The notes beneath the pieces were generated by a model that worked only from the letters and a program-made list of their open reading frames with translations, had not been told where the DNA came from and did not search any database. Below, one piece after another: positions 152 to 63,750 of a stretch of DNA of 64,000 nucleotides (the stretch's first letter is position 1; every line of letters starts with the position of its first letter). The position numbers and the translations under genes are program-made. The stretch lies in the NCBI GenBank assembly GCA_963807605.1, contig CAWECG010000003.1, positions 704,001-768,000 on the forward strand, read 5' to 3'. The stretch is from Candidatus Bathyarchaeota archaeon (GTDB taxonomy: Archaea; Thermoproteota; Bathyarchaeia; 40CM-2-53-6; RBG-13-38-9).

Positions 152-448
152 CAACCAAACATCTACAGGTATTGCTAGATGAATTCTTAACCTCTACCGT
201 CGGCAACACGCGCGCGTAATCTTAGGCCTTAGACGCATTCAACATGAGACGTCGCGGCGCCTTCGCCGTCGAATGTGAAGTTGGGATGTTGTAGGCCGAA
301 TTTCAATTTGAGAATTTCGCTTCAACACCCCATCGACGTCGAACGATTATTTATCGACTTGCTACGCATTTGCCAAGACAATTCGACAACAGGAACGACT
401 TGTTGTTGGTGTCTGTTCTTCGATCATCCGCTAGATCAGGATCCTAAT

Positions 449-1180
449 TTATGGTTCTTGAAGTATACGTTGCTTGTTGCCAAACCGGTTATGGTGCGCG
501 AAATCTTCTACATTACGGCGCACTCTCATGTATTTAGTTGGCGCAGAGATGGGGTAGCCTAAGCGGCAGGTAAAGGCAATTTTCATGTATTCGGGGATAT
601 CGAGAATTCTCTTCACTTCTTTCTCGACGGCGTTCGCACTGAAGGCACTCATTATGTGAAAGCTAATCCCTAGGGACTGGGCCATGAGCCACATGTTCTC
701 CATTACGCAGCCAAGACTCATAATGCCCAAAACATCCCCCTCTGAACCAGGTGCTCTCTTCCTGGAGTCATGGATCACTATCAGAAGCATCGGACTGTCC
801 CGAATGATTTCTTGCAGGGATCTGGTCCCTCTCTCACGAACGACTTCATCCAGCTTTGCAGGATTAGTCCATGACGGCGGGAACATGGCGGCGAGGAGTC
901 CAACCTTCTTTTGGAGTAACTCTTTTTCCGAGAATGAGAGCTGCTGATAGTTCTCCCGAATGAACTCTTCCGAGATCGGGGACTTGATCCTTCCTATCTT
1001 CTCCAGAAGCTTCTTGTCGTCTACGACGAGAATCTTGAAGTTCTGCATGTTGTGGGCCGTGGGCGCCCAGCGCGCCGCCTCAAGGATCTGCCTTACATCC
1101 TGCTTACTCACAGGGCGCTCCCGATCGAAGGGAACCCTCGACGAATGCCTTTCCTCGATGAGCTTCACGATATTAGTCAT
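449..1180 (-). CDS. Nitroreductase family protein
   Basis: RHSSR..F, ARWAPTAHNMQNF, LGCVMENMWLMAQSLG, LGYP motifs. Confidence 0.9.
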   Translation of the reverse strand: MTNIVKLIEERHSSRVPFDRERPVSKQDVRQILEAARWAPTAHNMQNFKILVVDDKKLLEKIGRIKSPISEEFIRENYQQLSFSEKELLQKKVGLLAAMFPPSWTNPAKLDEVVRERGTRSLQEIIRDSPMLLIVIHDSRKRAPGSEGDVLGIMSLGCVMENMWLMAQSLGISFHIMSAFSANAVEKEVKRILDIPEYMKIAFTCRLGYPISAPTKYMRVRRNVEDFAHHNRFGNKQRILQEP

Positions 1181-1460
1181 GACGACCCTCCCACCTTCAG
1201 AATCGCAACTTCTCACTGCCTAGCATATTAACTCGACGAGTAAGGGAGTTCTAGCGCGCGCTAAAAGAAGAATAATCACATCAGTAGAGGAGTAGATCTC
1301 TTCTAATCAGGACCCTCTCGCATAACCGAGAATTCCTACATCCACTTTTCCGTAACGCGCGTTTACGATCCTACGATAAGGGAAGGGTTCAACTGATGTC
1401 ACTATTCTCTCCCTACAAATACTCACGCACTACCTTTGATAAATCGTGGTTTGTATGCGG

Positions 1461-2474
1461 CTATGTCCCAGCCCGCGTTTTCTTAAGATCGAGAGCACGA
1501 AGTACTCTTTCTGGCGTAATAGGTAGTTCGTCGATCCACACACCCACGGCATCGTACACTGCATTCATAATCGCTGGCGATGGCGCGTTGGCTGTAAACT
1601 CCCCGATTCCTTTTACACCATACGGTCCGCCAGTAGATGGGCACTCGTAGATCCCTGCTACCAATTCAGGAACATCCATCACTGATGGAATGACATAGTC
1701 ACCAAGATTCTCAGGCTGCCACTTGAGCTCAGGATAGTATGGATGTAGATGTTCCATCAAGGCAGCGCCCATGCCCATCACCGCGCCACCCTCAATCTGG
1801 CCCTCAACTAGCATTGGATTTATTGCCTTACCAGCATCTACAACAGACGTAAGCTTGAGCACATCGACCACACCAGTCTCCGTGTCCACTTCTACTTCCG
1901 CTTGCACTGCGGTCCATGCAAGTGTTGTGAACGGGTCGATTCTACCTGTCACTGGATCAAGCTTAGAAGCAGGTCGCATGAAGTATCCGTTCCCAATAAG
2001 CGCCTTACCCAGCTCATATATCGCCTTGTTCGCGATAGCATCAATGTTCACACAACGCTCCGGTGATCCTCTGACAAAGATCTTACCTTTCTGAGCTACT
2101 AGATCTTTTGTTGAAACATCTAGATCTTCGGCTGCCACTTCAAACAGGATCGATCGCACTTGACGGGCCGCGTTCACCACGGCATTGCCCGTCATATACG
2201 TTACGCGGCTCGCAATACTGCCTGCACAGTGTGGACAGGTGTCAGTATCCCGATTCAGAACGTTGACTTGATCATACCCGATTCCTAACTCTTCGGCCGC
2301 CATCTGCGCCAACACGGTTTTACAGCCTTGGCCGACATCTGTTGATCCCACAATCAGATCCGCGGTACCATCGGGTTTGATCTTGATGATGGCATGACTT
2401 GGATCTCCGCCGCCAGTGAATCCTGTTGGATATAGCCCAACAGCAATTCCTTTACCTTTTTTCTTCATATTCAA
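1461..2474 (-). CDS. Xanthine dehydrogenase family molybdopterin subunit, C-terminal/medium chain (NdhM-like)
   Basis: DVGQG, GQIEGG..MG.G, GPYGVKGIGE motifs; split Mo subunit. Confidence 0.9.
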   Translation of the reverse strand: MNMKKKGKGIAVGLYPTGFTGGGDPSHAIIKIKPDGTADLIVGSTDVGQGCKTVLAQMAAEELGIGYDQVNVLNRDTDTCPHCAGSIASRVTYMTGNAVVNAARQVRSILFEVAAEDLDVSTKDLVAQKGKIFVRGSPERCVNIDAIANKAIYELGKALIGNGYFMRPASKLDPVTGRIDPFTTLAWTAVQAEVEVDTETGVVDVLKLTSVVDAGKAINPMLVEGQIEGGAVMGMGAALMEHLHPYYPELKWQPENLGDYVIPSVMDVPELVAGIYECPSTGGPYGVKGIGEFTANAPSPAIMNAVYDAVGVWIDELPITPERVLRALDLKKTRAGT

Positions 2475-4305: not shown

Positions 4306-4321
4306 TTGTGTCTTCCTCCTT

Positions 4322-5170: not shown

Positions 5171-5424
5171 TTTGTATCTACCTACGAAATCATCAATGTT
5201 TTTTGGCTTTAAACTTATTTAGAGCAACGGCGTAGAAAGAGCCTTCCGCGCGCCAATGCATGCTTGGTCCTCTTCTTCCTTTCTCCTGAGACACGCATTA
5301 ATTGCGTCAGGATGACCTAGATACGACGGCACCATGTAACGCGCGCGTTGCTCCCTTTCTTGGCGGAAGCTAATCATTTATTCGTAGTTTGGATTTATAC
5401 ATATTCACGATATGACGGATACGT

Positions 5425-8326: not shown

Positions 8327-8424
8327 AATACGATAGCGCGCGCCACTCGAAGCCCAGGCTCGCATTGTCGGAAGTTGCTTATTCGAGTGTTAGTGCTATG
8401 TTGTATATGAGAGGTGACTAATGT

Positions 8425-8612: not shown

Positions 8613-8719
8613 TGGCGGGCCCGCGGGGATTTGAACCCCGGACCTTTAGCTTTCGCCTGTATGATTAGGAGGCTCAGCCAAACCTGCCTACTGCTCTATC
8701 CATACTGAGCTACGGGCCC
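8613..8719 (-). tRNA. tRNA-Arg(CCT) with two introns (15 nt at ~29/30 and 14 nt at 37/38), CCA encoded
   Basis: Removing two inserts gives a 78-nt cloverleaf GGGCCCGTAGCTCAGTATGGATAGAGCAGTAGCCTCCTAAGCTAAAGGTCCGGGGTTCAAATCCCCGCGGGCCCGCCA. Confidence 0.85.
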
Positions 8720-8876
8720 TACAACGATTCCAGCGGTCTGACAGTGGCAACCAGCTATGGCTATTCCTCTCTAAAAGGACTTCCACACCTAATCAACCTT
8801 GTCTGGACTTAGAAACTGGACGATGGTTGTTAGTCCGAAAGCGCACGCTAGCAATGACAATCAACAAATGCGGCCA

Positions 8877-10079
8877 TCATTCTTTCCGAGATTTCTCTAG
8901 AAGACTCTTGACTCGGAGTTGCCTAAAGAATTCAAGAGCAAATCCAGCTGTTACTTCCAGTCTTTCTGGCCTCATAATGCTAGGAATATCTAGTGGGGTG
9001 TGATATCGCAAATCGGATCCGCAATTAGCTATCCAGATGGAGGGAATTCCTCTTTCAGCGAATAGACGTTGATCACTGCCAGGGCGTGGAGGCGTGTTCC
9101 AACAATCGACTACGACACCCATCTGCTCAGTTATCGTCTGACAAAAAGCCCTTATGTCAGCCGTCACCCCCACCTCAACTTTGCTCCGATCAGATCCGAC
9201 TGTGTCCAAGTTGATGATCGCATTAATATCACTCAAATCTTGTTGATGACGTTCAACATAACCAGCAGATCCCCAGAGACCGAGTTCTTCACCACTGAAC
9301 AAGACACATTCGAAACCCGTCTCTTCGCTACGGGTTAGTTCACGGGCCAACTCCACAATAGTTGCTACACCAGCAGCATTATCCATTGCGTGAATACCGT
9401 TCCAGAGACTGTCGTAGTGGGCTGACAATAATATGCGCGGGCCCGCGAGGTTGGATGGACGCCCGATGAGATTCTGACCCTCCTTCCATTCCATTCTGCC
9501 ATCGGTCTGAAGGGTTGCTTCCACATGTTCGCCAGACTGCAGACGAGGAATAATCTTACGACCGTCTTCTCCTCCAATACATACGCTAGGTATGCTGCCT
9601 GGTTTTCGATCCAGCCGACCAGAGCCGCATCGAATGGTGTTGTCTTGAAGGGTAGTGACCGAGATTAATCCTAGTGCACCAGTTGCCTCTGCTGCGGTGT
9701 AGGCTAAGAATGATCTCATGTTATCTGAGACTAGTATTGATTCGGTCAGGTCTATGCCTTGAGTTTTAAGTTTGGCGATTTCCTCTTGTGTGCCAGCTCC
9801 ACAATACGCAAGGGGTGCAGTCACCGGCTTCCTAGCGAAAGCCGCATTGACTAAGGGTTCGCAGTCAAGCCTTCTTCCATCGAGGTGGAGTGATACACTT
9901 TTTGTTTCATAAGACAAATAGCTGAAAGACTCCGTCTCTGCTTGAAGGCCAATTTCTTCAAGCCGTGAAAGAATGTAATCTCTAGCTTTTGCAAGGCCGT
10001 CCGTGCCCATATAGCGCGATCCAAAGCTGCAAATGGTTTCGACAATAGAATAGATCTCTTGACCACTAATCGATCCCAT
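8877..10079 (-). CDS. M28 family aminopeptidase with PA domain
   Basis: SAHYDS, AMDNAAG, SGEELGLWGS, NLD, SD..F, YHT..D. Confidence 0.9.
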   Translation of the reverse strand: MGSISGQEIYSIVETICSFGSRYMGTDGLAKARDYILSRLEEIGLQAETESFSYLSYETKSVSLHLDGRRLDCEPLVNAAFARKPVTAPLAYCGAGTQEEIAKLKTQGIDLTESILVSDNMRSFLAYTAAEATGALGLISVTTLQDNTIRCGSGRLDRKPGSIPSVCIGGEDGRKIIPRLQSGEHVEATLQTDGRMEWKEGQNLIGRPSNLAGPRILLSAHYDSLWNGIHAMDNAAGVATIVELARELTRSEETGFECVLFSGEELGLWGSAGYVERHQQDLSDINAIINLDTVGSDRSKVEVGVTADIRAFCQTITEQMGVVVDCWNTPPRPGSDQRLFAERGIPSIWIANCGSDLRYHTPLDIPSIMRPERLEVTAGFALEFFRQLRVKSLLEKSRKE

Positions 10080-10204
10080 AAATCATCTCACCTAGTCGAA
10101 CAATCAACCCTGCTCAAATGACATGCAGTTATAGTGAATGTTAGAAATAGTTCTCACCATTTAGGATTCCGCGCATCATAAAGGTCATTTCACTTGTCTA
10201 TTGC

Positions 10205-12064
10205 TTAGGATTGCAGAAATTGCTCTATCTCTGTTTCAGCGTTGTCTGCTTTGATGAATATCGGTACGTTTTCCATTCCTGTTGCCGTATAGCTTGATAG
10301 TAGCCACTCGCCAGGCGCAAACTCCAGTGTCTTTTCAAGTATGCCTTGGTCGATGGTGAAGGTGTTGCTGACGAGGCTTCGATCATACGGTCTGGGCAGG
10401 GGACCAACAAGGTAGGTGTGCAACTGTTGGAGAGCGTTAGTGTTCAAATACGCTATTCTTTGAGTTGCCACGCATCCTCCCAGTCCATATTTTCTGCCCT
10501 GACGGAGCAAAGTCTCGATCTGTGCGGTGCATCTACTCTCAATTCCTCTTGCCTTATCATAAGCTGGAATAAACTCCTGAGCCTCATCGAAGACGAAGAG
10601 TATAGGCGGTTCCACTCTAAATTCACGTTTTCTTCCTATCAGAATCATCTTCGACAGATCTATGGCTAAGGACTTTACAGTGTTCGGATCTACAATAGAG
10701 AGACAGATGATTCTGCAGTCGCCTTCAATAAGCTTGGCTATGGCTTGCGTAGTGTAGCCTTCATCGGTTTCTTCTATCTTCGATGAAAGGCTGTCTTTCA
10801 GTGAGTCCCTCGTCTGCGCCCATGTGTAGAGGCCCCCGCTCTTCCATATCTTGTATTTCTCAACGATGGCAAGGGCTTTTGCGCTTAGGAATTCAACGAA
10901 CTTCTCGTCTATTGATTTTCCGCGCTCGATCTTCTTCTCTCTTAGATATTCTAGTATAGCTCTGTTGATTGCGTCTAATGCTTCGAGGCTTGTGGCTCGG
11001 TCCGAATTCTCTGACCTCAACAGGTCAAGCTGATGAAGGACATCATCATACGTAATCACGCTTGAGATTGCTTCGGCGTAGCATCCGACTTTGTCCTGAT
11101 TCAGTATATCCTCAAAGGTCTTCCTAGCCTTAACATTCTTCTCAAAGCCTCTCGGCTTAACAACAACCTTGTAGAACTGGTCACCATCCTGGACAGGCGT
11201 CTCCAGGATGATCTTCGAAGGAATCTTTGGGTCTGAAAGTACGTCTTGGAGAAGGAACGGGTACTCCATGGACACGTCGAAGATAACGATCTTCGTATCT
11301 TTGGTGTGATAGATCAGTCTGCGCAGAATACTCGATAGGAGATTCGATTTTCCGGCACCCGTGAACGCAAAGATCCCAAAATGATAACGGACGAGTCTTT
11401 CAAAATCAACATAGATGGGTATCTTCTCTTCTTCATTCTCGAACATCTTGATCGTGCCAAGTCGCGGATCCTCACGTGCAACTGAACTAGTCTTGATCGT
11501 CTTCCACTGGAGGCCCATCCTCTCCAGAACGGGCTTGTTATACATCTGGTGAATAGTATCCTTATTCAGAATGTGAACGCTTTCAGCTATGACCGGGTAG
11601 GTGAAGCCTTTCTGATACTGCGCGTCGCCTCCACCATCAACAATCAGGTCATAATTGAGCGGTATAGCTGCGAGCTGAATCATCATCGTAGCTTTATCGT
11701 CTGTAGCCCAGTCCTCAACCGACTGCTGAATAATCTCAAACTGGTAGGGATAGTAGCTATGTTCAGACAAGCCCGTCAAGCCGTAGTGTTCAGGACTTAT
11801 ACGGGAGATCTCAAGAAGTGTGAATCGTCTTCCGTCGTGGCGGCTAGCCTTGAAGTTGCGCACAGCAAGGAGCATACCTTCCTCAAGTAGGCCCATCAGA
11901 TCCTTCTGATACTCAGCTTTGATCCGACAGTCATATTTGGCTGAGATCCCGGTTGTCTCTGATGGTGCCTCTGTCTTTCTCACGGCTAGAACAGAACTTA
12001 ATCTGGCGATGAATCGGCCGTCGAAATCGGTGAAGAATTTCTTATCATCTGCGTGCGTACTCAA
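10205..12064 (-). CDS. herA: HerA/FtsK-family ATPase
   Basis: Walker A FTGAGKSN, VFDEAQEF, RQGRKYGLG..ATQR; directly downstream of NurA-domain gene. Confidence 0.85.
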   Translation of the reverse strand: MSTHADDKKFFTDFDGRFIARLSSVLAVRKTEAPSETTGISAKYDCRIKAEYQKDLMGLLEEGMLLAVRNFKASRHDGRRFTLLEISRISPEHYGLTGLSEHSYYPYQFEIIQQSVEDWATDDKATMMIQLAAIPLNYDLIVDGGGDAQYQKGFTYPVIAESVHILNKDTIHQMYNKPVLERMGLQWKTIKTSSVAREDPRLGTIKMFENEEEKIPIYVDFERLVRYHFGIFAFTGAGKSNLLSSILRRLIYHTKDTKIVIFDVSMEYPFLLQDVLSDPKIPSKIILETPVQDGDQFYKVVVKPRGFEKNVKARKTFEDILNQDKVGCYAEAISSVITYDDVLHQLDLLRSENSDRATSLEALDAINRAILEYLREKKIERGKSIDEKFVEFLSAKALAIVEKYKIWKSGGLYTWAQTRDSLKDSLSSKIEETDEGYTTQAIAKLIEGDCRIICLSIVDPNTVKSLAIDLSKMILIGRKREFRVEPPILFVFDEAQEFIPAYDKARGIESRCTAQIETLLRQGRKYGLGGCVATQRIAYLNTNALQQLHTYLVGPLPRPYDRSLVSNTFTIDQGILEKTLEFAPGEWLLSSYTATGMENVPIFIKADNAETEIEQFLQS

Positions 12065-13913
12065 CTTCAGCCCTCCGCTCCCGGAAAGTATGCATGTAGA
12101 ATGTGAACCTTCGCAACTTAGGATTATTCATCAGCATATGACCAGTTGCATCTATAAGCCCATTCACCCTTGACCTCTGCCCCTTCGCAATCTTGTCAGC
12201 GATGAATAGAGCTTTGTTGTGTCCGAAGACCTCTGGAATGCTGCGGGCACCCATCGCCTTCAGAATTATCATCACAAGATTCTGCACTTTATTCGGAATT
12301 GTCTTGTCTCGATAGAGAATTGGTTCGATAGGCTCGGTTGCTCCTCCATACCGGTGTTTGAAGGAAACAGTCTGATCACCATCAAATTCAGGATGAACCA
12401 GCCGATCGATGAAGAGAACGTTACTTCGCAGCTGAGGATCACTCTTAGCCTCGTCAAGCTGGACATAGCTCTTAACGAATATCCGTTCAGCAATGATTCG
12501 GTTGCTGATGGCGCCGCTGACGAAGCCTTCTCTACCTTCAAAGTCTGGAACAATCATGCGAAATGCGCAATCATACTCAATGAGACTCCAAGGAGTAGGA
12601 ATCTTATGATAGTTAAAGAGGCTCATCGCCTGAAGAAGCATCCTATCAGTGCTCGGAATATCTGTTAGCCTATCTTTGTCAGCCTTCCACAGACCTGCGT
12701 TCACACAAACGGGGACTAGATGGTTCTGGAAATCTCGAGCAGTAGTGTCCTTAGTTATGCCTAGTAAGAGAACCCTGCGTGCCCAACACTCTTCGATAAT
12801 CATATAGAAGCAGTAGAGGGTGAGAAAGGCAAGATCCTGCGTTGTCAACCAGTAATAGTGGTCGCCTTTCTTGATGCGCATGGGGTTGCCTGATGTGGAT
12901 TCGAATAGATTGTCTCCTAAGGTTAGGACAAGTTTCTTGATGCGTTCCCAACTTTTGGCATATCGTGGATTAATTGAATAACTTCCCCCGCTCTCAATAA
13001 GATAGCCTTCATCAACAGACTTGCCAAGGTATTTCAAAAGACGATTTCTGCGTTCTTCACCATCGACTCCCAGCTCTTTGCAGATTTGTTCAGCCTTCAC
13101 TGGTTTCGCTTTCGATTCCAAATAGAAGATGGTTGCGTACCGAATGTAGTCTCCTCTTGCTGGTGGAGTGTGAAGCTTAGAATTAACGACGTGATGTCTA
13201 CCATAGCCCATCTCGTTAATGTCTGTGGGGACGCCGTCGATCTCGAAGCCACAAATAATTCCATCAGTCTTCCAGTGAGAACGCTTGGAAGTATCATACA
13301 TGAGGGCGGTATGCATAGCAGAGAGGCTCCTGTCAAGAAAGAGGATCCTAACATCTTCTTCCACAATCATCTTGTAAGCGAGAAACAACTCTGAAAAGGT
13401 CATAATCCAGTTGGCTATCGTGGAATTGTCAACCACAGCCTGCTCGGTCAGGGCGTCAGTGACAGCCATCAGTCCAGGTTCCGCCGCAGTTGCGATCCTC
13501 TGGTCCACCTCATGGATCCTGTCAACATAAATGGGAATGCAACTCGACACTCCCCGGCCGCGCTCAATGAACCCAGTCGCATACTCTACATGCGGAGGCG
13601 TATTCTCTCTGAACTCCATAGTACCTGACGCCGCGTAGGATCCTCCCCAAAATACTGCCAATCCTGCAACTAGCTGCTGATCTTGAGAACCGTCAACCGC
13701 TGCAAACTTGACACGAGCAGACCCAAACAACCGAAGAGCTGTCTCGTAAGCCTTGGAAACATCGAACCCAGTGACTAGAAGCTCAGATAACAAGCCCTCG
13801 TACAGATCTTTCGCCGATTCGAGTTTGTTCTTAGACTCTTCTACCTGATCTTCAGCTCCCGCTCGAAGAACACTACCTAACCGTTTAACATGCATGCTTA
13901 GAATAGAAGACAT
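12045..13913 (-). CDS. nurA: NurA-domain nuclease, long form with internal wHTH-like insertion
   Basis: FAAVDGS, LFLDRSLS, GITKD, C-terminal GHNKALFIADK; overlaps herA by 20 nt. Confidence 0.75.
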   Translation of the reverse strand: MSSILSMHVKRLGSVLRAGAEDQVEESKNKLESAKDLYEGLLSELLVTGFDVSKAYETALRLFGSARVKFAAVDGSQDQQLVAGLAVFWGGSYAASGTMEFRENTPPHVEYATGFIERGRGVSSCIPIYVDRIHEVDQRIATAAEPGLMAVTDALTEQAVVDNSTIANWIMTFSELFLAYKMIVEEDVRILFLDRSLSAMHTALMYDTSKRSHWKTDGIICGFEIDGVPTDINEMGYGRHHVVNSKLHTPPARGDYIRYATIFYLESKAKPVKAEQICKELGVDGEERRNRLLKYLGKSVDEGYLIESGGSYSINPRYAKSWERIKKLVLTLGDNLFESTSGNPMRIKKGDHYYWLTTQDLAFLTLYCFYMIIEECWARRVLLLGITKDTTARDFQNHLVPVCVNAGLWKADKDRLTDIPSTDRMLLQAMSLFNYHKIPTPWSLIEYDCAFRMIVPDFEGREGFVSGAISNRIIAERIFVKSYVQLDEAKSDPQLRSNVLFIDRLVHPEFDGDQTVSFKHRYGGATEPIEPILYRDKTIPNKVQNLVMIILKAMGARSIPEVFGHNKALFIADKIAKGQRSRVNGLIDATGHMLMNNPKLRRFTFYMHTFRERRAEVEYARR

Positions 13914-14116
13914 TTCTGCCCACCATACTGAATTCCAGCTTAAGTAGACTACTGATCGCTGAAACTAGTCGAGACCGATGTAGAGTAGTGTCTGGCGTAA
14001 AAGATAAGCTATCAGCCATCCAATGCGCGCGTACCAGCAACAAAGAGTCCGCGCAATCTTCAACACACAAAGACTATAGATAGTGTCACTTCATATCCAG
14101 AATTCAGGTGGTCTGC

Positions 14117-14869
14117 ATGAAATTGCAAGGTAAAGTCACAATCATTACGGGCGCTGGGCGTGGCATAGGACGAGCAACAGCAAGAATGTTCGCACAAGAA
14201 GGAGCCAAGATTGTGATAAATTACAGCAAGTCAGAGAAGGAGGCCTACAGCTTGGCTAGCGAGATCGATAATGGAGGCGGAGAAACACTAGTTGTAAAGG
14301 CAGATGTCTCAAAAGCAGATGAAGTCAAGAAGATGATTCAGAAGACCATTGCGAAGTTCGGTCGAATAGATATCCTCGTGAACAATGCAGGCATAGCAAT
14401 CCCCGCAGCCTTCCTTGACTCTACAGAAGAGATTTGGGACCGGACAATGGATGTAAACTTGAAGGGTGCCTATCTATGTTCAAAAGAAGTTGCGCCGATA
14501 ATGCTCAACCAAAAGAGCGGGAAGATAATCAATATAGCTTCGGTTTCTGGAATGGCTGAAAGGACTGCGGTCAATAACACTGCCTACGTCGTCTCCAAGG
14601 CTGGCGTGATAGGTCTAACTCGATCCCTTGCGGTAAATTTGAGTCCACATGTAAATGTCAACGCTATCTGTCCAGGCCTTATCGATACCGATATGGTAGA
14701 AGCCACTTTCACGCCTGAAAAGAAGACAATGGCGATTCAGGAATATCTTCTAAAGAGAATGGGAAAACCGGAAGAAATAGCCAGCGCTGCCCTGTTTTTG
14801 GCATCGGGCGACTCAGACTTCATAACAGGAGAAATACTGACAGTCGCCGGCGGTAAGGCAATGAGATAG
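14117..14869 (+). CDS. SDR family oxidoreductase (FabG-like)
   Basis: TGAGRGIG, NNAG, YVVSK. Confidence 0.95.
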   Translation: MKLQGKVTIITGAGRGIGRATARMFAQEGAKIVINYSKSEKEAYSLASEIDNGGGETLVVKADVSKADEVKKMIQKTIAKFGRIDILVNNAGIAIPAAFLDSTEEIWDRTMDVNLKGAYLCSKEVAPIMLNQKSGKIINIASVSGMAERTAVNNTAYVVSKAGVIGLTRSLAVNLSPHVNVNAICPGLIDTDMVEATFTPEKKTMAIQEYLLKRMGKPEEIASAALFLASGDSDFITGEILTVAGGKAMR

Positions 14870-14924
14870 AACTAATAGTCTATGTCTGCGCCAAACGCGC
14901 GTCTAGAAAACAGCGCTCTCTTCG

Positions 14925-16187
14925 TTACGAAGTCATGTTGCCCTTTGTCTTTGGGTATGGCACCAATAGTATCGTCAGCAAGGCAATCCCAAGCAGTACG
15001 TATGATAGAATGAATGCCCAGTAGTAGCTTTGGTATGCATCGTAGATCAGACCCGCAGCAACTGGACCGGCAGCCCCGCAACCCATGAAAACGAAGTTCA
15101 TTAGGCCAAAAATGACACCGTACGAAACCAAGCCAAAGGTTCTACTTACAGCCAAAGACATGAAAGGTAGCCAGCAACCCATGCTCAGCCCGAATATGAT
15201 GGCATAGAGTATCAGCACGATTATGGGTATTGCTGATTTCATAGTCATTAGTAGTGTGATTGACGTTACCTGAGTGCCGATTCCCATGACGAGAATGTAC
15301 TTCGCCTGTACATGATCACCCAGCCAACCAAAAACAAATTTGCCTACTCCACTGCCAAAACCGGCCAGACTCATGACTGAGGCGGTCGCAGCTATTGGAA
15401 AGCCAATGCCTTGCAGATACGGTACCTGACTTTGTAAGATTGCATTATTAGACACGGTAAATGCGGCCAAGGCAATCATCAACAACCAGAAGGTGGGCGT
15501 TCTCGAAGCCATTTTGAGGTTTAGACCCATCTCAGGCGTAGCAGTTAGCGGGGTCTCATCATTCGTCTGAGGTGTTTCAACACCATCAGGCAGAAGGCCC
15601 ATCTCGGCTGGATTTGATTTGATTATTAGAAGTGCCAAAGGAGCGATAATCAAAGTGGTCAGAAGCCCAGATATGACACAGGTATTCCGCCAACCGAAGG
15701 CAGGAATGAGGAAGGCTCCAATAATCGGTGGCACAACAGAGCCACCGACGCCGATACCAGTGCCCACAATACCGATAGCCCAACCACGTCGTTTCCGAAA
15801 CCATTTACTAATGACCGTGCTTGCCGGCACCACCCCAATGGCAGCGGAACCTACACCCAAGAAAATCGAAAACAAGTAGAATTGCCAAAGTTCTCTAATA
15901 ATACTGATAAGGATGAAGCCAAGTCCCAACAGAGACGCGCCGGCGGCGATAACATTTCTCTCTCCATAACGCGAGATTAACCGACCAATAAAGGGCGAAG
16001 CTACTCCTATCGATAGATAGACTATGGTAATAATAGTCATTATTCCTGCCCTACTCCAAGCAAATTCATCCTGAAGAGGTTTCACGTAAAAACTGAAAGA
16101 ATACATAATGAAGCCATTCCAGAAAATCTGGCATAGAAAGACAAGCAAAATTATCCAGTAACCATAGAAGAACTTCTTTTCAGCCAT
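14925..16187 (-). CDS. MFS transporter (OFA/MCT-like)
   Basis: FFYGYWII start, WFRKRRGWAIG, about 12 TM segments. Confidence 0.9.
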   Translation of the reverse strand: MAEKKFFYGYWIILLVFLCQIFWNGFIMYSFSFYVKPLQDEFAWSRAGIMTIITIVYLSIGVASPFIGRLISRYGERNVIAAGASLLGLGFILISIIRELWQFYLFSIFLGVGSAAIGVVPASTVISKWFRKRRGWAIGIVGTGIGVGGSVVPPIIGAFLIPAFGWRNTCVISGLLTTLIIAPLALLIIKSNPAEMGLLPDGVETPQTNDETPLTATPEMGLNLKMASRTPTFWLLMIALAAFTVSNNAILQSQVPYLQGIGFPIAATASVMSLAGFGSGVGKFVFGWLGDHVQAKYILVMGIGTQVTSITLLMTMKSAIPIIVLILYAIIFGLSMGCWLPFMSLAVSRTFGLVSYGVIFGLMNFVFMGCGAAGPVAAGLIYDAYQSYYWAFILSYVLLGIALLTILLVPYPKTKGNMTS

Positions 16188-16351
16188 GCCCTTTCGTCCG
16201 ACAGCCTGAACTAAAAAGCCTTCGCGCGCCTATCATCGCGCGCGCAAATCCCCATAGTTCGTTTAGCATTATCTTGACGACGATGCCGCTCATATCATTG
16301 AGTGTGTGCGAGTGGCAACCTTGATTTAGAAAAACGTTTTCCCAACAAGCG

Positions 16352-16684
16352 TTACTGCTCTAAATCTTTCTTCATTTCCAAAAATTCTTCTCTGCTAATT
16401 TCGCCCCTAGCGTACCTTCTTCTGAGAATTCTAATCTCACGCTCTCCATCCCAATGTCCATGATGCCATGGCCATCTGAATATCCAACTGAGGAACCAAA
16501 GTAGAAATAAGAGCGCTACTAGTTTCCAAATCCAGCTTGAAAAGAGTACCGGCTGTTGAGCCCCGCCGAATATTCCATTAGAAATAACACCAAGTATTAT
16601 TGCAATGACAATCAGGCCAAATGCTATTCTGAAAACAAAGGTCATCCAAAATCTTCCAGAGAACCAATCATCTTCATGTACCAT
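16352..16684 (-). CDS. SHOCT-domain membrane protein
   Basis: 2 TMs plus ILRRRYARGEISREEF. Confidence 0.85.
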   Translation of the reverse strand: MVHEDDWFSGRFWMTFVFRIAFGLIVIAIILGVISNGIFGGAQQPVLFSSWIWKLVALLFLLWFLSWIFRWPWHHGHWDGEREIRILRRRYARGEISREEFLEMKKDLEQ

Positions 16685-16789
16685 GTTTTGAGTTGGGCAG
16701 CCATTCCTTAAAAATACATCGAAGTTGACGCACGTAGGGTCGATTCAAATGCTTCAAACTTGAATGTTGCATTGAGCTAGGCGGGCGCG

Positions 16790-17569
16790 TTATTGTATCA
16801 CGAAGAAGTGGAAGAGAACAACAAGAAGAATACGGTAAACGCCGAAAGGAATGAAATTTCTCTTCCCCACATAACCTATGAAAAGTCTGATCGCAACAAG
16901 GGCGACCAAGAAAGATATGACGAACCCTGTCAAGATCATACCAACCTGACCTGACGAAAATTCTCCTGCAGAGTTTACCAAGTCAAATCCAGAAGCAGCT
17001 ATCATCGTAGGAACAGCTAACAAGAAAGAGAACAGCACCACTGTCTTTCGCTTCATTCCTAGCGCTAATCCACATATGATCGTGGGTGCAGATCTTGAGG
17101 TACCTGGTATGATGGCGATGGACTGAAGAAGCCCGATAAGCAAACAATACTTGTATGGTATTCTAGAAATGTCATCTAATGTTGATCTTTCACGATAGAA
17201 CAGTTCAAAGATTACCAGAAATACTCCACCAAGCAGAAGCGCCCACAGTACGACCTGCGAATTACCTAACAGTACCCCTTTGTAAATCCTGTAAAGTGCA
17301 AATCCGATAATCGCTGTAGGCATAAAAGCCACGATTATGCGTTTCAAGATATTCCAGTCAAGAAAGCGTCTCCAATAGGAAACGACCACGGCGAGAATCG
17401 AACCAAACTCAAGCGATAACTCATAACTCTTAACGAACTCAGTCTGTGCAATCTTCAGAATCGCTGCTGCCAGAATCATGTGGCCACTGGAAGATACAGG
17501 TAGGAACTCTGTGAGTCCTTGAATGATTGCCAGAATAATAGCACTTATTATGTCCATGACTTTATGCAT
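16790..17569 (-). CDS. uppP: Undecaprenyl-diphosphate phosphatase (BacA family)
   Basis: QGLTEFLPVSSSGH, PGTSRS, F..YR motifs. Confidence 0.9.
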   Translation of the reverse strand: MHKVMDIISAIILAIIQGLTEFLPVSSSGHMILAAAILKIAQTEFVKSYELSLEFGSILAVVVSYWRRFLDWNILKRIIVAFMPTAIIGFALYRIYKGVLLGNSQVVLWALLLGGVFLVIFELFYRERSTLDDISRIPYKYCLLIGLLQSIAIIPGTSRSAPTIICGLALGMKRKTVVLFSFLLAVPTMIAASGFDLVNSAGEFSSGQVGMILTGFVISFLVALVAIRLFIGYVGKRNFIPFGVYRILLVVLFHFFVIQ

Positions 17570-17779
17570 CCCACCGATTGTTTTCGTATGAAGGAAATAC
17601 TACGCGACATAAAAGCTCAGCTGAACTGATAATTGTCGTACTTGCTTCTTGTGCGTGTCAAGAAACGATCCAACACTACGCCAAGTCTTTTTTGCATACC
17701 ACACGTATACGTAATCGCCTAAAGAGGAAGCTCATAGTAAACTACATATTTCACTCGAATGCATTCCGTACTGATTGCT

Positions 17780-18172
17780 ATGGCTTTTGAACAAGAGATG
17801 TTGGAAGAGTTAAGAAAGATCCGTGAAGCAGTGTCGCCAAAACCCGCTCCACCCGAAACTCCGCCCAAAGGAGTCTGGGCAGAATTCTTGGATTTCATTG
17901 GAAAAGCAGGCGTCTTGGGTCTGGCGGTAGGCTTCATCATGGGCACCTACATCGGCAAGGTAGTCTCAGCGCTAGTGAGCGATATCATCATGCCGGTCCC
18001 GGGGGCCTTTGTGGGCAACGGAGACTGGCGGAAAGCAGTCCTGCAACTGCCGATTGCTAATGGAATGAACTTCGCTCTCGGCGACTTCGTAGGGGTCATT
18101 ATAGACTTCCTGATCGTTGCCGCTGTTATCTTCTTCATCGTAAAATATGCGAAGAAGATCGGGTTGAAGTAA
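17780..18172 (+). CDS. mscL: Large-conductance mechanosensitive channel family
   Basis: EF..F....V.GLAVGFI.G, LVSDIIMP, G.F...IIDFLIVA. Confidence 0.85.
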   Translation: MAFEQEMLEELRKIREAVSPKPAPPETPPKGVWAEFLDFIGKAGVLGLAVGFIMGTYIGKVVSALVSDIIMPVPGAFVGNGDWRKAVLQLPIANGMNFALGDFVGVIIDFLIVAAVIFFIVKYAKKIGLK

Positions 18173-18431
18173 CTTAAGGACTAAGGAGCGCGCGCGATCG
18201 AACCGTAGCATTTACACCAATCTTTGCAAAATCAATTACGTAGTGAATTTAGAAATCTCGCTTGGGCATGATATCAGAGTGTTTTTACAGTGAGCTGACT
18301 TCGAGACCTTTCACGTAAAAGCCGTTGTCACCTTGCTTTTCTTCATGCCATAGACGTAAACACGTGCCCTTCGTGTGTTCTTTGTAAGTCTTAAGAAGTC
18401 ATGAGAGGATAAGGTTGGGCGGTAGATACGT

Positions 18432-18890
18432 TTGCCTACTTGCAACAAATGTGGAACATACAATGCGGATGGATCTAGTTTCTGTATGAATTGCGGATCA
18501 AATCTACTGACGAAAGTTGTATATCCACAGTCAACACAGCCTCAAGAACCCTATGGTAAAGATAGCGTCACAATAGATCATCCTCTCAAACTTACTATTG
18601 AATTTCAGGAACCTGCCTCTAGGCTTGAGTTATTTGTAAGAATAATCCTCCTAATCGTATATGGGATAGTTGCAGGTGTCTGGGGATTCATTGCTGAACT
18701 AGTGACCATCATCCAGTGGTTTTACATTCTGATCAAGGGCAAAAGAAGTCTGCGCTTATGGAATTTTGTCCTAGGTTACTTCAGCTACAGTGCTAGGGTG
18801 TCAAGCTACAGCCTCTTACTGACGGACAGGAGACCGCCGATCAGCGCGCACGCGCTTCGACTCACTGGTACATTGAAAAAGAGAAACTAA
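18432..18890 (+). CDS. Zinc-ribbon + DUF4389 membrane protein; 3' end joined at a CG motif
   Basis: CNKCG..FCMNCG; SRLELFVR..QWFYIL..G.R..LTDRRPPIS followed at once by AGCGCGCACGCGCT. Confidence 0.75.
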   Translation: MPTCNKCGTYNADGSSFCMNCGSNLLTKVVYPQSTQPQEPYGKDSVTIDHPLKLTIEFQEPASRLELFVRIILLIVYGIVAGVWGFIAELVTIIQWFYILIKGKRSLRLWNFVLGYFSYSARVSSYSLLLTDRRPPISAHALRLTGTLKKRN

Positions 18891-18897
18891 TCTCCTA

Positions 18898-19569
18898 GTG
18901 ATGGATGAAATAAACGTGACCTTCACGGGCCTTTGGCGCGCCCGCATACTCCTATTACCAGGGGGCCGCGACACTTATCGTGGCCAGGTTCTGCAAGAAA
19001 TGTGGCAAGAAACATTAGTTCACACACGAGTGCGTGCTGACGAGATAAGGAGTCTATTACTAAAGGACTACGTGAGCTATCTAAAGGAACATCGATGGGG
19101 GATTATAGACGGTGTAATTCTACAGCCTCTGGTGTATCATGTCTTAACAAAACTGGAAAACAGTTATGCTACGATTGCCGCTCTGCTCCTATACTTACCA
19201 TTCAAGATAGTAAAACTTCGCAGCACTTTCTTAGTGGCATACCGAGATTCTAGAGATCTTAGTGACTACAGAAGAATTGTGAGATATCTTATTATTTTAC
19301 CAAGGGAGTTTGCTGGTTTCATTGCAAGTTATGGCGTAGATGCTATTCTGCATTACTCTTTTCTTAGGAACGTATTCAATTCCTTTGGCATTAGAAGTGC
19401 TTTGGAAGTAGGTGAAAAAACGACGGCTGATACAGTCACTTCTAGCAGTGAAACTTTTGAGAGATTTTTTGTTGAGGAATTGCCAGGGGCTCTTGAAAGA
19501 GTAACCAGCAACGTTGTTACACATCCTTTCACAATCAAACTGGTAAAAATAATCAGGGGACTTCGATAA
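18898..19569 (+). CDS. Hypothetical protein (true start probably near 19030)
   Basis: 223-codon ORF; its 5' part crosses a CG motif and a zinc-ribbon relic in another frame. Confidence 0.45.
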   Translation: MMDEINVTFTGLWRARILLLPGGRDTYRGQVLQEMWQETLVHTRVRADEIRSLLLKDYVSYLKEHRWGIIDGVILQPLVYHVLTKLENSYATIAALLLYLPFKIVKLRSTFLVAYRDSRDLSDYRRIVRYLIILPREFAGFIASYGVDAILHYSFLRNVFNSFGIRSALEVGEKTTADTVTSSSETFERFFVEELPGALERVTSNVVTHPFTIKLVKIIRGLR

Positions 19570-19714
19570 CGCATTAATGTGTTCACGCGTGTGTATCAAA
19601 GGATAGACAAGAAAGCCGTGAAAACATAAAACAATGAAGCCAGTATCTGATGGTCTAGATATGTCAACCTAGGTCGGTACTGAACTATGGGCCCCTAATA
19701 TTCTAGCGCGCGCG

Positions 19715-20078
19715 CTTTACGTCCTCCTCCCTGAAGGGGTTTATCTGTATGATGCGAAAGGGAATCAGCTAACACCCGTGCTGGCTGAAGACCTTCGAAC
19801 AAAGGCGACGACTCAGGAATTTATGAAAGAAGCGCCAGTACATCTACCTTTGTTGCAGACTACGCCAAATTTAGAATGATTCCCAGTCCCAGAAGGAGCT
19901 TTATTCTGCCGTTCACACGGGGTTTATCGGCCAGAATGTGTACCTGTATTGCACCTCCGAAGGACTAGGCGCCCGCTTCTATGCTAGCATTGACCAAGCT
20001 TCACTGAAAGATAGTTTGAAACTCCGGGAGGATCAAGCAATCGTTTTTGCTCAAGCAGTTGGGTATCCGAAAGAATAA
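19715..20078 (+). pseudogene. 5'-truncated SagB/ThcOx-type nitroreductase with 2 frameshifts
   Basis: LYVLLPEGVYLYDAKGNQL..EDLR..APVHL / FVADY / YSAVHTGFIGQNVYLYCTSEGLG...IVFAQAVGYPKE*; begins right at TAGCGCGCGCGC. Confidence 0.8.
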
Positions 20079-20091
20079 TGCGCACACGCAC

Positions 20092-22814: not shown

Positions 22815-22824
22815 ACAACAAATT

Positions 22825-23632: not shown

Positions 23633-23799
23633 GCAAAGTCGTTTCAAAACGCACGCGCGAACAGGCAGTTTAGAGCGCTAGCTTATGACCTGGAAGATAA
23701 TTCATCTGACATGCGTGCCACGCTTGTAAATTAACTGAAAACAAACCGACATGTCTTATGCGCGCGTAACCTTAAGCGCGCGCTATGTCTTGCTGGTCT

Positions 23800-25944: not shown

Positions 25945-26208
25945 AAAGCGTACCAGTACAAACCTATCGACCTGAGCCTAGAACAACTGCCCATTTTTTC
26001 TAATCTGTTAACTTAAACAATGATATTACTCTACAGCACGCATTTCTATCTCGGCTAGAGACATAACGCGCGCTAGCTCCTCCGAATTTCAAAACCCCTA
26101 GGTGGTTCAGACGGAGTACAAGTGGATTGCACTCGTAATTACCACTGTCGGGACATGCGCGCGCATAATATTCGCTTTTGAAAGCTAAAACATATCAAGT
26201 TCCATGAG

Positions 26209-27042: not shown

Positions 27043-27095
27043 AAGCACGCGTTAAGACGGCGTGACGACTACACTAAAGGACCGAGAGATGTAGG

Positions 27096-27866: not shown

Positions 27867-28048
27867 TTACACGCGCCTTGGAAATATGTGCACTACCTTG
27901 AGCGCGCGCTCACCTTTGTATTCCGATGTCATCTCCATTCTCTAGGGTCGAAGGTTGCATCGCAACCGCCTTCTCTATTATTAGTGTGTGCGGCCTCCTC
28001 GAGCCTCAGAGCTTGTTCTATCTCGGGTGAACTGAAAAGCGCCTGTGT

Positions 28049-28597
28049 CTACCTCCGCCATTTCTTTTTGATTGGCATTGCGAAGATTTCCCGGATTTCT
28101 AATCTTTTTTGTATGTCTGGGCCAAGCATATCGGCCGTCGACGTTGCTCTAACAATAGCAGCTGAGTCGGAGCCGCCTCCTGTGCCGCCCACCGCAATCA
28201 CATCCTGTCCGGGAGGAGTTATCCCCTTATCCACCGCGATGAGAACCACCTCGACACAGACTTTCATCCCCTGACCGAAGGTGTAAAATGTATTTCTGAC
28301 CAAATCCTTTCCAACCTCATGTAGGGGCAGATAGTTCTCAAAATTGCAGATGGTCACCCCTCGATTCCTAAGCTCTTTAATATTTTCAGGCGCAATCTTT
28401 TTCCATGAAACTGCTATCAACTTTGCTTTTTCCCTAAGAGCCTTGCCGAATTGAATCGCAGTCTTACCCGTTGAGCTGGCTATGATAACGGTCTTAATTC
28501 CTGTCTCATCGATTTTCTCAGAAACTGCCTGAATCACAGATTCAGTATTCTTAGAACCGGGCTCATCAAAACACAAAGTCTTACTGATCCTATTCAT
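28049..28597 (-). CDS. Pyruvate kinase C-terminal-like (MTH1675-type) protein
   Basis: F.EPG..NT, ASSTGKTA, GQGMKVCVE...A.D.G, GGTGGG.D.A. Confidence 0.85.
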   Translation of the reverse strand: MNRISKTLCFDEPGSKNTESVIQAVSEKIDETGIKTVIIASSTGKTAIQFGKALREKAKLIAVSWKKIAPENIKELRNRGVTICNFENYLPLHEVGKDLVRNTFYTFGQGMKVCVEVVLIAVDKGITPPGQDVIAVGGTGGGSDSAAIVRATSTADMLGPDIQKRLEIREIFAMPIKKKWRR

Positions 28598-28809
28598 TTT
28601 CACCCATCCTCCTTGAAGGCCTCGCATGACCCTTCAAGGATAAAATGTTTTCACTTGGTTATTCCCATCAGCTCTTGAAACCTTATATGTGCAAGTGCCA
28701 GGTTCACAAACACGAGCCATGACCTCTTTTCACCAAGGCGCGCCAAAACTAAAAGTATAAAATGCCCCGTCGGACTCAGCGTGAGAAAGAAGATACGGGT
28801 CGGGGTCGC

Positions 28810-35899: not shown

Positions 35900-36161
35900 T
35901 CTACGTAGGAGTGCACACTATTCGATTGTAAAGTCGCGTTATACGACGGTTTCGCGCGCTTCACTTCCGCTTGTAGTGTTGATTACCTGAGATGGAGACG
36001 ATTGATCAGTTGGCCTCCGCTTTTTCTTAAGGACGAAAACCCCGGCGAGCGCGCGCTAAAGTAATAGGACCTTACCATTACTTGATCACCGCCAAGTTAT
36101 AGCTTGAAGTTGGAAAGAAGGGCATGTGACGAAGACCGGATACTGCAGTCAATGTTTGCGA

Positions 36162-36782: not shown

Positions 36783-36965
36783 TCAGAATAACATGAAGAA
36801 TAGTGCCGAAAAAACTAAGGAAATGATAGCCGTAAAACCTGTACTGAAAGAGTTTACAAACTCGTTATTCAGCGCGCGCGCTTTCCTCAAAAACTCAGCC
36901 ACACCGATCACAAGAAAAACATAAAAAGTTAACGCGATGCCCAGAATATCTCCCAGATAATCCAT
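36783..36965 (-). pseudogene. Internally deleted phytol/dolichol-kinase-like + DUF92 gene, joined at a (CG)5 palindrome
   Basis: N-term MDYLGDILGIALTFYVFLVIGVAEFLRK, junction ARA = GCGCGCGCG, C-term LNNEFVN...(DUF92-like end). Confidence 0.6.
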
Positions 36966-57869: not shown

Positions 57870-58170
57870 AGTTTCACACCTCCTTTCAATAGAGATTGTA
57901 TTGGCGATTACCAGATTCGCCACGACTAGGTATAATGTGCGGCGGCATGTAAATCTAACTGCAACTGAGTAGACTTCAGCCTGAAGCTATCAACGCCTAA
58001 AAAATGTCTACCCCAAAGTTATTCTGCACCATCTCGATAGTCTGACCAGCCCAGCCAATAGAACTCGTGGCGGTTTTCAGTTGACTGAGTTTGAGACACA
58101 TGTGAAACAAATCATTCAACGTACTTACAAGCGCGCGCTAACCAACATAATTACGCAAACAAGAAATCCA

Positions 58171-58839: not shown

Positions 58840-59295
58840 TTCTTAGTACTGCCTTGTTGAAATGCGGATTATAAGCAGTAAGATATTCAATAGATTTACG
58901 CAGGTGTCCCCCAAGAGAATGATGAGATCGAAAGATGGCATATGGCCGTCAAGAGCAACGAAGAGCTTAAAGCGATTGCTGCTCGTGTTGCCTTGCAGGC
59001 TGAAGCATCTATGCGAGACAACAACAGCACACTGAGTATGTTAGATAGGCGCAGAATCATATAGCTTAGCAATTCTTACAAGTAGAAGCGAATAACCTTT
59101 CCAACGATCGACTTCACGTCAAACCGAGTCTCCGACAACAGTTATACGGTCTGACCGGCCTGACAACCCCCATTCGTAACTATGTTTTATAACCGATTAG
59201 AGCGATCTATATTCGATTAGTAACATAGGTCGCGTAGACATCTTCACTCCAATTCACAAAGCCATCCGTTAGCGCGCGCTAGGAAGATATGTCGA

Positions 59296-61524: not shown

Positions 61525-61541
61525 TATTCTGGATTTTAGGG

Positions 61542-61663
61542 TGTCGGAATATTCGAGTTTTACACTCAGACAGCCAATTTGTTTAGGTTCTAAGGTTTTG
61601 AATGCTAGGATGTCTAGGGTCTAAGGTTGTGAATAAAAGTGTCCAAATTAAGATGCGCTCACC
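61542..61663 (+). repeat. Direct repeat, copy 2 (of 43010-43127)
   Basis: Near-identical to copy 1 apart from a few substitutions and a 4-nt insertion. Confidence 0.95.
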
Positions 61664-61883
61664 CATTATCCACCACCAAATAACGTTGACCCATAGTTTT
61701 CTAGGGATAATGGAAAATAGACTAGTGAGTTGCTATGTCAATCAGTCTGAGTTTCGAGCATTATCCTCCCTGCCCTGATTGTGCTAAGAAAGAAGAGATA
61801 GATAAATTGTGGTTGGTCAGGCTGATTCGAGTTCGGACAAGGTCAGATTCTAACCCTTATACAAGCGAGCATCTTACATCAAG

Positions 61884-62294: not shown

Positions 62295-62404
62295 GATAGT
62301 TCAAGATGACCTTTTTTGCTTCTAGACTCTTCTTGATGAGTTCTGCCCACATGTTCTTGTCGAGACTATTATAGATAGACCAGATGAGTAGGACAAAATT
62401 TTCA

Positions 62405-62848
62405 TCATTTACTGACACGCTCTTCTGATGATTTCAACAAAATCAGAGTCACAGGGTCTCCGACTCGCAAACCACTATGAACATACTCCTCCCTAGACAG
62501 AACCCAGTTAACCTCATTGGAACCTCCATTCCGTTGCTGATTAAAGGGATTACCCACAATCATTATCTCCATCAAGCCGGATATTCCTCCTTTGTTGATT
62601 GGAGAAATTATCGGTCTTTCTTGATCAGGATTTTCTTGGTCAAGTTCTATGATTACTAGAAACTTCAGATCGTTTTTTAATGTGACCACTTTGATTGTTC
62701 CAACCTTTTCTATTTGCGTTGTTCTTCTACCTCTTGTTCCATATCTTTCATATAGTCGAAGGCAGCCACCAAACTCTTCAGCTTTCTCCTCCTTCTGGCA
62801 GTACGCCCGCTTGAAATCTTTTGTCCACAGAAGAAGATTCTTCAGCAT
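62405..62848 (-). CDS. Hypothetical protein (start uncertain)
   Basis: ORF ending LSREEY...GLRVGDPVTL. Confidence 0.45.
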   Translation of the reverse strand: MLKNLLLWTKDFKRAYCQKEEKAEEFGGCLRLYERYGTRGRRTTQIEKVGTIKVVTLKNDLKFLVIIELDQENPDQERPIISPINKGGISGLMEIMIVGNPFNQQRNGGSNEVNWVLSREEYVHSGLRVGDPVTLILLKSSEERVSK

Positions 62849-63222
62849 CTGGCACGAATATCGCTACCGTTATTCCAAGTACCCCTGCTATAGCTGCTAA
62901 CGTCAGTTCCGTTTCTTGCTAGGTCTGCCGGTGACTTGCCCTCTAAGGCCTGGTGTGGTCTAACACGGTTGTAGTAGATGTTCTGCATCGAGATTATTGG
63001 CGTCTCTTCCTTCTTCAGTCCACGCATAACCTTCTCCCTATCCCTCTTCGTGCCGTGTAACCGTTCGATGATGTTGTTGTTCATGTCTCCTGCAAGTCTG
63101 ATGTGCCTAATATGTTGAGTTCTCGGAGTCTTCATGGTGTAGAATTCCTTGTTGAAAGCGTTCTTGTATGCGTATAAGCCGTCAGTTACAACCTTCTCTG
63201 GCTTATTAGCATTGGGCCCCAT
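62842..63222 (-). mobile_element. IS6-family-like DDE transposase C-terminal relic
   Basis: P...VTDGL.AY, NN.IER.H...R.R.K.MRG.K, YYN..RPH.AL; N-terminus missing. Confidence 0.75.
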
Positions 63223-63750
63223 CGGTTTTTTTGGAGGCTTGTTTGAGTAAACGGCCGAAGTATTCTCTCGAACACCACACCAGTGATAATAGCGGGGATC
63301 AGACAGGCCAATTACCCGAACAAACCTTAGAAAGCCTCATTCATTTGACCATAGACCGAATTGGACGTCCACGCTGCCGATTAAGTCCCATCCCGAAGAA
63401 ATCGTTTCAAGGCTTCATTATCATCAGCCTGCTTGCGAATTATCTCTGGCAGTTGCTTCTCGAATTCTTCTATCATCATTCTCACCATGCTTTCTAGAGA
63501 TCGAGGGTCTTTCTGCATTATGTTCTTCCGTGAATAACTGTGTACTGTCTTGAGGAAATAGGGATGAAGCTAGCTTCTCTCGACCGAATCTTCGCAGAAT
63601 AGTCCCAACTTTTCTGTGTAAGGAGGGTGGGAAGCCAAGACACCGTACTCTATCAGAACTCCGGAATTGGTTACATATTCGATGCGCCCCCGTCGCGCGC
63701 GCTTGTATGATCACACGACACAAAGATTCTGATAGGCAAGGATTTTCGCC

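Follow-up and report, generated by a model that had tools for sequence, protein, structure and literature searches.

Short uninterrupted stretches of alternating CG or GC (runs) recur in a 64,000-nucleotide stretch of a Candidatus Bathyarchaeota genome (the window; positions 704001-768000 of contig C3 of the source genome G000, which comprises 2.65 Mb in five contigs), and they are probably filler DNA, added when ends that share no usable homology are joined. Where segments were deleted, tandemly duplicated or inserted, or where unrelated segments were joined, the run was shown to be new sequence that is absent from the uncut copies. The motif, studied here as the word GCGCGCGC, is a product of joining and not a recognition site that organises modules, and the joints suggest a repair pathway whose filler sequence is fixed and which acts after deletions, duplications and gene transfers.

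Abundance and position of the runs

A sequence-only reading of the window had listed about 15 pure runs of at least 8 nt, set them against a chance expectation of about one and proposed that they delimit genes and operons in a cassette-shuffling system. Each of the 15 runs, which are 8-10 nt long, starts exactly where it had been placed, and an order-3 Markov null gave 1.47 runs of this size (maximum 4 in 60 simulations). The broader tally of about 55 CG-alternating motifs was too high, with 36 runs of at least 6 nt counted (null, 19.6), or 39 sites with at most one mismatch from the 8-mer. The enrichment extends to the whole genome: GCGCGCGC is the most over-represented 8-mer of the source genome (298 copies vs. 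17.5 expected), and 290 of its 320 runs of at least 8 nt (91%) are intergenic in the gene set, which was called with the authors' own script. Run length ranges from 6 to 15 nt in two registers and peaks at 8 (198 runs vs. 127 at length 7), an A stands directly outside the run at 503 of 640 run ends, and density varies from 0 to 24 runs per 50 kb.

Runs were found alike in tandem, convergent and divergent gene gaps. The 30 nt ahead of starts were depleted (9 vs. 28) and the distance to starts was not fixed, which agrees with the earlier premise that the motif is not a pure regulatory element. At 0-19 nt past stops, 36 runs were observed and 21 expected; in seven cases the run itself supplies the stop codon of a truncated gene, and part of the excess is therefore due to cut genes. 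Of the sites described earlier as long runs close to stops, the one at 8336 does follow the bax1 stop (Table 1), but those at 16784, 27045 and 20079 are degenerate words. A regulatory or chromatin site (factor binding, terminator or histone positioning) would suit the intergenic location, the stop-proximal excess and two close run pairs that could form hairpins; it is nevertheless extremely improbable in view of the depletion before starts, the equality of gap orientations, the partial origin of the excess in cut genes and the fact that runs are not kept at orthologous positions. As filler scars, the runs would accumulate between genes because those that fall inside a gene or less than 30 nt ahead of a start are purged.

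Runs as new sequence at joints

The source genome was compared with itself at an identity of at least 88%, with large transposon families excluded, and many unrelated duplicated segments were found to terminate at a run. A run of at least 6 nt stood where homology ends at 68 of 360 non-transposon repeat ends, against a null of 2.75% from shifted positions. It was present in a single copy in 64 of these 68 joints, the other copy proceeding in unrelated sequence without GCGC, and was common to both copies in the remaining 4. Among runs of at least 7 nt with a homologous flank elsewhere, 105 donors lacked the run and 42 carried it, about one-third of the latter being ends of insertion sequences (IS). 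Three runs of the window, at 1254, 19706 and 27902, are proven joints. The right flank of the first (1263-1496) is 90-94% like C1:480100-480332 of the source genome, where the donor gene continues run-free; the right flank of the second (19716-20332) is 95% like C1:371936-372554, the donor being cut inside a gene and run-free there; the 1008-bp segment with the VTT/DedA gene that ends at the third has a 99.8% duplicate on the same contig (C3:308298), and that copy continues run-free.

In some cases, both flanks map to one donor, so that the exchange can be read directly: 6, 6 and 17 bp were replaced by 10, 9 and 8 nt of run, respectively, and deletions of 54, 252 and 1422 bp were closed by a run. 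The flanks of about a dozen other joints map to unrelated loci. The clearest joint of known direction is a perfect 45-bp tandem duplication in an intact 439-aa gene (C5:32950-33035), the two copies of which are separated by nine new letters, AGCGCGCGC; the ancestral state at C5:32981 was free of a GC word. Among ten chained indels, a small sample, the three that had neither homology nor a target duplication nor 7-8 bp of microhomology were all run-bearing (one with a transition), and the other seven were run-free.

The same breakpoints bear on the proposal that a recombinase excises and rejoins gene modules at the motif, which is largely refuted and very improbable. Many modules do have runs nearby, gene order differs sharply among relatives, and a few joints exchange flanks at a run common to both copies; but the run usually stands in one homologous copy only, breakpoints are arbitrary and fall within genes at 14 of the 71 donor sites, overlapping copies of a single donor stop at differing places, and neighbouring motifs taken with their 2-nt flanks are identical in 2 of 190 pairs (3.4 expected), unlike att sites or the direct repeats made by an integrating element in casposon- or CRISPR-like capture. 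Nor are genes and operons delimited by the motif: only 255 of the 2516 gene gaps (10%) hold a run of at least 8 nt, about 20 genes in 21 kb of the window (37136-58131) are accompanied by no run of at least 6 nt, and in the relative G001 (C188) runs lie within conserved gene order. Metagenome-assembled genomes (MAGs) being incomplete and kin not independent, absences are given here and below as not found among the genomes searched; in this sense, the integrase domain of tyrosine recombinases (PF00589) was not found in motif-rich G007 (96% complete), G010 and G046; it is abundant in motif-free genomes. The earlier remark that no run separates genes inside operons is correct (0 of 515 tandem gaps of at most 30 bp in the whole genome), but the absence is explained by gap size. 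What stands of the modules joined at a CG linker is thus the linker at DNA joints, not the shuffling of gene cassettes.

Anatomy of the joint

No GCG or CGC was present within 6 nt of the break in 42 of 52 well-aligned run-free donors. In 37 simple joints, a donor A led directly into the run in 16, a donor T was followed by one added A in 11, a donor C or G was absorbed in 9, and one joint was of another kind; the base ahead of a single added A was T in 11 of 12 cases (P = 5e-6). Fifteen further joints had at least two added letters, often A-terminated. An end-base rule was thereby shown statistically: A is followed by the run, T by one A and then the run, and C or G is merged into it. It was likewise shown statistically that the two ends of each joint act independently. 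Random pairing of left and right flanks gives palindromic arms just as long as those seen outside the run, so that the perfect 12-mers noted earlier, while present, are a by-product. Decayed run copies differ mostly by transitions. Snap-back palindromes were rejected as a source (arms not enriched), as were a doubled 4-bp target left as a footprint (donors without GCGC) and a target duplication (neighbouring motifs do not match).

Such joints would be expected if a terminal-transferase-like polymerase added an alternating GC tail to each 3' end, and if two self-complementary tails then annealed over a few GC pairs and were filled and ligated, mostly to 8 bp. Alternatively to tailing, a tiny template containing TAGC or TACG might be copied on one base of pairing. 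Later, the scars may decay by transitions, slip by 2 nt, become targets of two IS families and occasionally act as microhomology for further rearrangements.

The capture of a ready-made palindromic duplex or the copying of a small template (TA-GCGCGCGC-TA) in place of stepwise tailing is unlikely. It would account for the sharp length of 8 and for the observation that even-length, symmetrical runs are commoner than independent ends predict, and, since TAGC and TACG hold all four bases, any 3' end would find a one-base match and the same end rule would result. Against it, no reverse transcriptase was found in G000, G007, G046 and G128, rRNA was rejected as the template because the 16S locus has no matching word, the two registers (A-GC and A-CG starts) would require two templates, and other stable palindromes are not used in the source genome.

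Comparison of strains

Public contigs of other strains were aligned to positions 12001-32000 of the window. New GC words seal a 126-bp deletion in strain X5 and a 92-bp deletion in strain X6 (one contig each, depth 2.7 and 3.5, respectively), and X6 also has a run-free empty site of the 831-bp insert (27899-28729). The run at 19706 differs by 2 nt between strains (10 nt vs. 8 nt in X1). A contig 99.7% like G001 diverges from G001 at a new run. Few close relatives were recovered when metagenomes were scanned with the SDR gene. Positions 8616-17956 agree at 99.99% with an independent 9341-bp contig built from short reads, which spans several runs, and relatives carry the motif; therefore, the runs are not assembly or ligation chimeras, which had been named earlier as a possible source of error.

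Alternating GC is a classic Z-forming sequence, and pre-existing short GC words could be fragile or slippery, with breaks and microhomology joins occurring there and slippage extending them to 8 nt. This explanation is rather unlikely, even though the run is present in both copies at the 4 joints mentioned above and at about 25 non-IS edges, run length varies by 2 nt between strains, and the X6 deletion at 18939 begins in an existing 6-nt run. It does not accord with the 42 donors lacking GCG and CGC close to the break, with the sharp peak at 8 and the fixed A/T flanks, with the lack of enrichment of alternating AT runs in the source genome, or with the distribution of the motif among genomes of differing GC content described below.

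Distribution among relatives and in Thermofilum

Among relatives, matches of GCGCGCGC number 325 in G001, 227 in G010, 165 in G007 and 158 in G004, against 0 in G005 and 1 in G011, both from the same family; G012 is motif-poor, with 7. G005 has 46% GC, and G007 and G010 have about 36%. The occurrence of the motif is patchy among lineages and does not depend on GC content. It should be noted that G005, which has no copy in 1.6 Mb and uses the CG dinucleotide less, is a natural negative control.

In a wider survey of 301 Thermoproteota genomes, the word AGCGCGCGCT was counted against its reversed control and was strongly enriched in only a few more lineages: genus g52 (118, 88 and 70 copies, with 0 in three congeners), G166 (30 vs. 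0) and, in family f39, G128 (22 vs. 0). The last is a complete genome of 1,750,259 bp and 46.5% GC, values that match Thermofilum adornatum 1910b (PMC3772148). Its runs likewise peak at a length of 8 nt and have the A/T flanks of the source genome, run-marked joints are present, and the motif is nearly absent from three other genomes of its genus.

Insertion sequences in runs

Two IS families, about 1.13 kb long and encoding DUF772 and DDE_Tnp_1 domains, were detected in the source genome (IS5/IS1182-like, with matches below curated cut-offs). Every one of the 14 full copies lies inside a CG run, with CGC at one edge and GCG at the opposite edge in nearly all cases, and relatives in G001, G002, G008 and G012 likewise sit in runs. 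The runs might accordingly be footprints of these families, left by insertion, adjacent deletion or rearrangement, and excision leaving GCGC+GCGC; the run-free state of three of the five homologues available for IS flanks would fit as well. This origin is quite unlikely: the IS5/IS1182-like query had no match in motif-rich G003, G004, G007 and G010 (120-227 8-mers each), although MAGs often lose repeats, and no such element was traced in T. adornatum, whose complete genome bears the scars, whereas such elements are frequent in motif-poor G012. Moreover, two homologous empty sites already contain a run, and neither the T-to-A rule nor the 45-bp tandem duplication is explained. The most plausible reading is that the IS families use the scars and are not their source, and both appear to be specialised on them as harmless landing sites. 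One empty site weakly suggests a 2-bp duplication. The insertion point of the copy at C1:587472-588610 is enclosed by flanks that make up a perfect 24-bp palindrome.

About 40 TnpB-only elements of the IS200/IS605 type were also present, in three families (L005, L006 and L007; C3:2861, C1:597022 and C3:1147493 of the source genome); they cluster at C4:480-720 kb, a region that is mostly GC-run-poor.

Features of the window

The runs, joints and segments are listed in Table 1. The MFS gene at 14923-16231 is 85% identical to its counterpart in G003, a genome of another genus whose remaining genes are about 72% alike; judged from this identity, it is likely a recent transfer. A dispersed short repeat, CTCACCAGCT followed by a CA tract, occurs in about 30 copies in the source genome, in the window at about 43000-43280 and 61535-61800, and accounts for much of the excess of CACACACA. 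A scan with Rfam returned a tRNA and nothing else.

Table 1. Runs, joints and related segments (positions within the window unless a contig is named).
Feature	Position	Strand	Remark
CG run	209..216	.	Homology to G001 and G003 ends 10-20 nt ahead of the run
Filler at proven joint	1254..1261	.	Donor ends in T, A added; right flank 1263-1496
CG run	5340..5347	.	Between the Mo-enzyme operon and xpb
GC run	8336..8343	.	9 nt downstream of the bax1 stop
SDR gene segment	14060..14912	.	Deleted in strain X1, joint without a new run (counter-example)
Run pair, 7 and 9 nt	16223..16245	.	End of the MFS segment, 85% like G003, which stops here
9-nt run	18188..18196	.	After mscL
92 bp of open frame	18940..19031	.	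Lost in strain X6; sealed by A + 10-nt CG run
10-nt filler at proven joint	19706..19715	.	8 nt in strain X1
Run pair, 7 and 8 nt	23760..23783	.	
8-nt run	26157..26164	.	
Duplicated 1008-bp segment	26894..27901	.	Carries VTT/DedA gene; homology ends at the filler
126 bp	27869..27994	.	Lost in strain X5; sealed by 10-nt GC word with one mismatch
831-bp insert, PK_C-domain gene	27899..28729	.	Absent from strain X6; new run at the left joint only
GCGCGCGC filler at proven joint	27902..27909	.	Left flank is the end of the 1008-bp duplicate; right flank matches another locus
8-nt run	36049..36056	.	
10-nt run	36872..36881	.	
8-nt run	58131..58138	.	
8-nt run	59272..59279	.	
9-nt run	63694..63702	.	
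IS family example 1	L003:301-1442 = G000 C1:343571-344712		
IS family example 2	L004:301-1439 = G000 C1:587472-588610		

Search for the enzyme

A search for a recombinase or ligase correlating with the motif had been suggested, and none of the enzymes profiled follows it. Of the 16 genomes of the family, G000 alone was found to have Ku, which also occurs in four f2 genomes that are motif-poor. PolX, the number of PolB genes and the nucleotidyltransferases do not follow the motif; nor do the solo PriS-like AEP at C3:72237 and the AEP at C3:316908 in their distribution, and the extra AEP of T. adornatum is present in motif-free G005 and missing from G000. The LigD phosphoesterase is near universal, and the apparent three-gene cluster beside it proved to be acetyl-CoA synthetase. 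Cas1 was not found in G003, G007 and G010 and is present in motif-free G005; PriX was found in none of five genomes, motif-rich or motif-poor. The comparison of G000 with the full T. adornatum genome yielded 640 reciprocal best hits, with no unique repair gene standing out, the subtraction of G005 being partial.

Several loci encountered in these searches may be recorded. The source genome carries a LigD polymerase-Ku-ligase operon with the ligase frame split in two (C1:589-592 kb, L150). The AEP at C3:316905-317657 (L185:4909-5658) is a 250-aa PriS-like protein that is widespread in Bathyarchaeia, has in several genomes a stand-alone LigD phosphoesterase 2 kb away and, in the G000 copy, reads N-L-D at the expected first catalytic D-x-D. 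At C3:239262-244244, a PolB2-like gene, a small partner, a RadA-like ATPase and a DUF72 gene resemble the archaeal PolB2 mutagenesis operon. A PriL-like gene adjoins PriS in the source genome, and the primase of that genome has its closest named relatives in Bathyarchaeia.

The primase PriSL of Saccharolobus/Sulfolobus adds nucleotides by terminal transfer, anneals ends on 2-4 GC pairs and extends across them, and in vivo it carries out error-prone break repair with insertions reported only after A or C (PMC12019639, PMC3333859). Like the route proposed here, its end joining is archaeal, independent of Ku and based on terminal additions that create microhomology. By this analogy, the likeliest known enzyme might be the replicative primase PriSL, a lead and not a result; its status as a core enzyme would account for the empty outcome of presence/absence profiling.

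Limits of the filler interpretation

A number of observations weigh against the filler interpretation or narrow it. No enzyme tracks the motif across genomes; PriS is present in 25 of 25 near-complete genomes, motif-rich and motif-poor alike, its three-way alignment revealed nothing diagnostic, and a core PriSL leaves the lineage restriction of the runs unexplained. The insertions made by PriSL are mostly of 1-2 nt and not alternating (PMC12019639), whereas a fixed word of about 8 nt with a T-then-A rule is seen here at hundreds of natural joints. The 853-bp deletion of strain X1 is clean and has no run, the strain joints are each supported by single low-depth contigs, and the 2-nt length changes between strains indicate that part of run length is due to slippage. 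In the self-comparison, 81% of repeat ends have no run, many of them being old or ends of other elements, and the direction of change is known for only part of the joints. Certain joints were clearly made without filler, and the filler route is at most one among several.

Comparison with known systems

Like the filler or N-nucleotides made by TdT, Pol mu, Pol theta and the LigD polymerase domain (PMC4538821), the runs are new letters between homology-free ends with variable flank loss; unlike those fillers, which are random or flank-copied, they have one sequence independent of the flanks, and Ku and PolX do not track them. The filler thus works like known filler-producing end joining and differs by its single sequence. 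Cyanobacterial HIP1 (GCGATCGC), which is linked to recombination and transformation, is likewise a hyper-abundant, lineage-patchy, GC-rich palindromic 8-mer (PMC4390886, PMC5861425). HIP1 is, however, a fixed word, methyltransferase-tied and quasi-periodic, whereas the runs vary in length and register, cluster in the flexible genome and arise at joints. In integron cassette arrays (attC, IntI), unrelated accessory genes also adjoin with a repeated joint word, but the runs have no attC structure, random orientation, cuts inside genes and motif-free donors, and an integrase is not needed. REP/BIME elements with RAYT are intergenic palindromes present in hundreds that serve as IS targets, and Tc1/mariner-type excision footprints are TA-framed; both resemble the runs. 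REP/BIME differ in that the runs measure 8-12 nt and have neither a stem-loop nor a GTAG/GATG foot. In contrast to transposon footprints, the TA around runs is not a duplicated target and depends on the last base of each end.

No description of a fixed-sequence filler at natural joints was found in the literature searched. What this analysis adds is the rule on the last base of each end, the finding that the two ends act independently, the duplication that stays in frame, the IS families that target runs and the set of enzymes that were excluded.

Significance

It is possible, if doubtful, that some TACK archaea own a dedicated form of end joining, in which any broken end is given a fixed self-complementary adaptor by an enzyme that works either template-free or from a tiny built-in template. 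Such an adaptor would make any two ends compatible, would drive deletion, duplication and the uptake of foreign DNA, and would leave a datable mark per event. A fixed-sequence filler would be a new end-joining chemistry, relevant to the joining of breaks in Ku-less archaea. The marks left by the runs allow illegitimate joins and gene acquisitions to be counted and roughly dated in uncultured lineages. Since T. adornatum is cultured and carries runs, and three other genomes of its genus are nearly without them, the question is directly testable.

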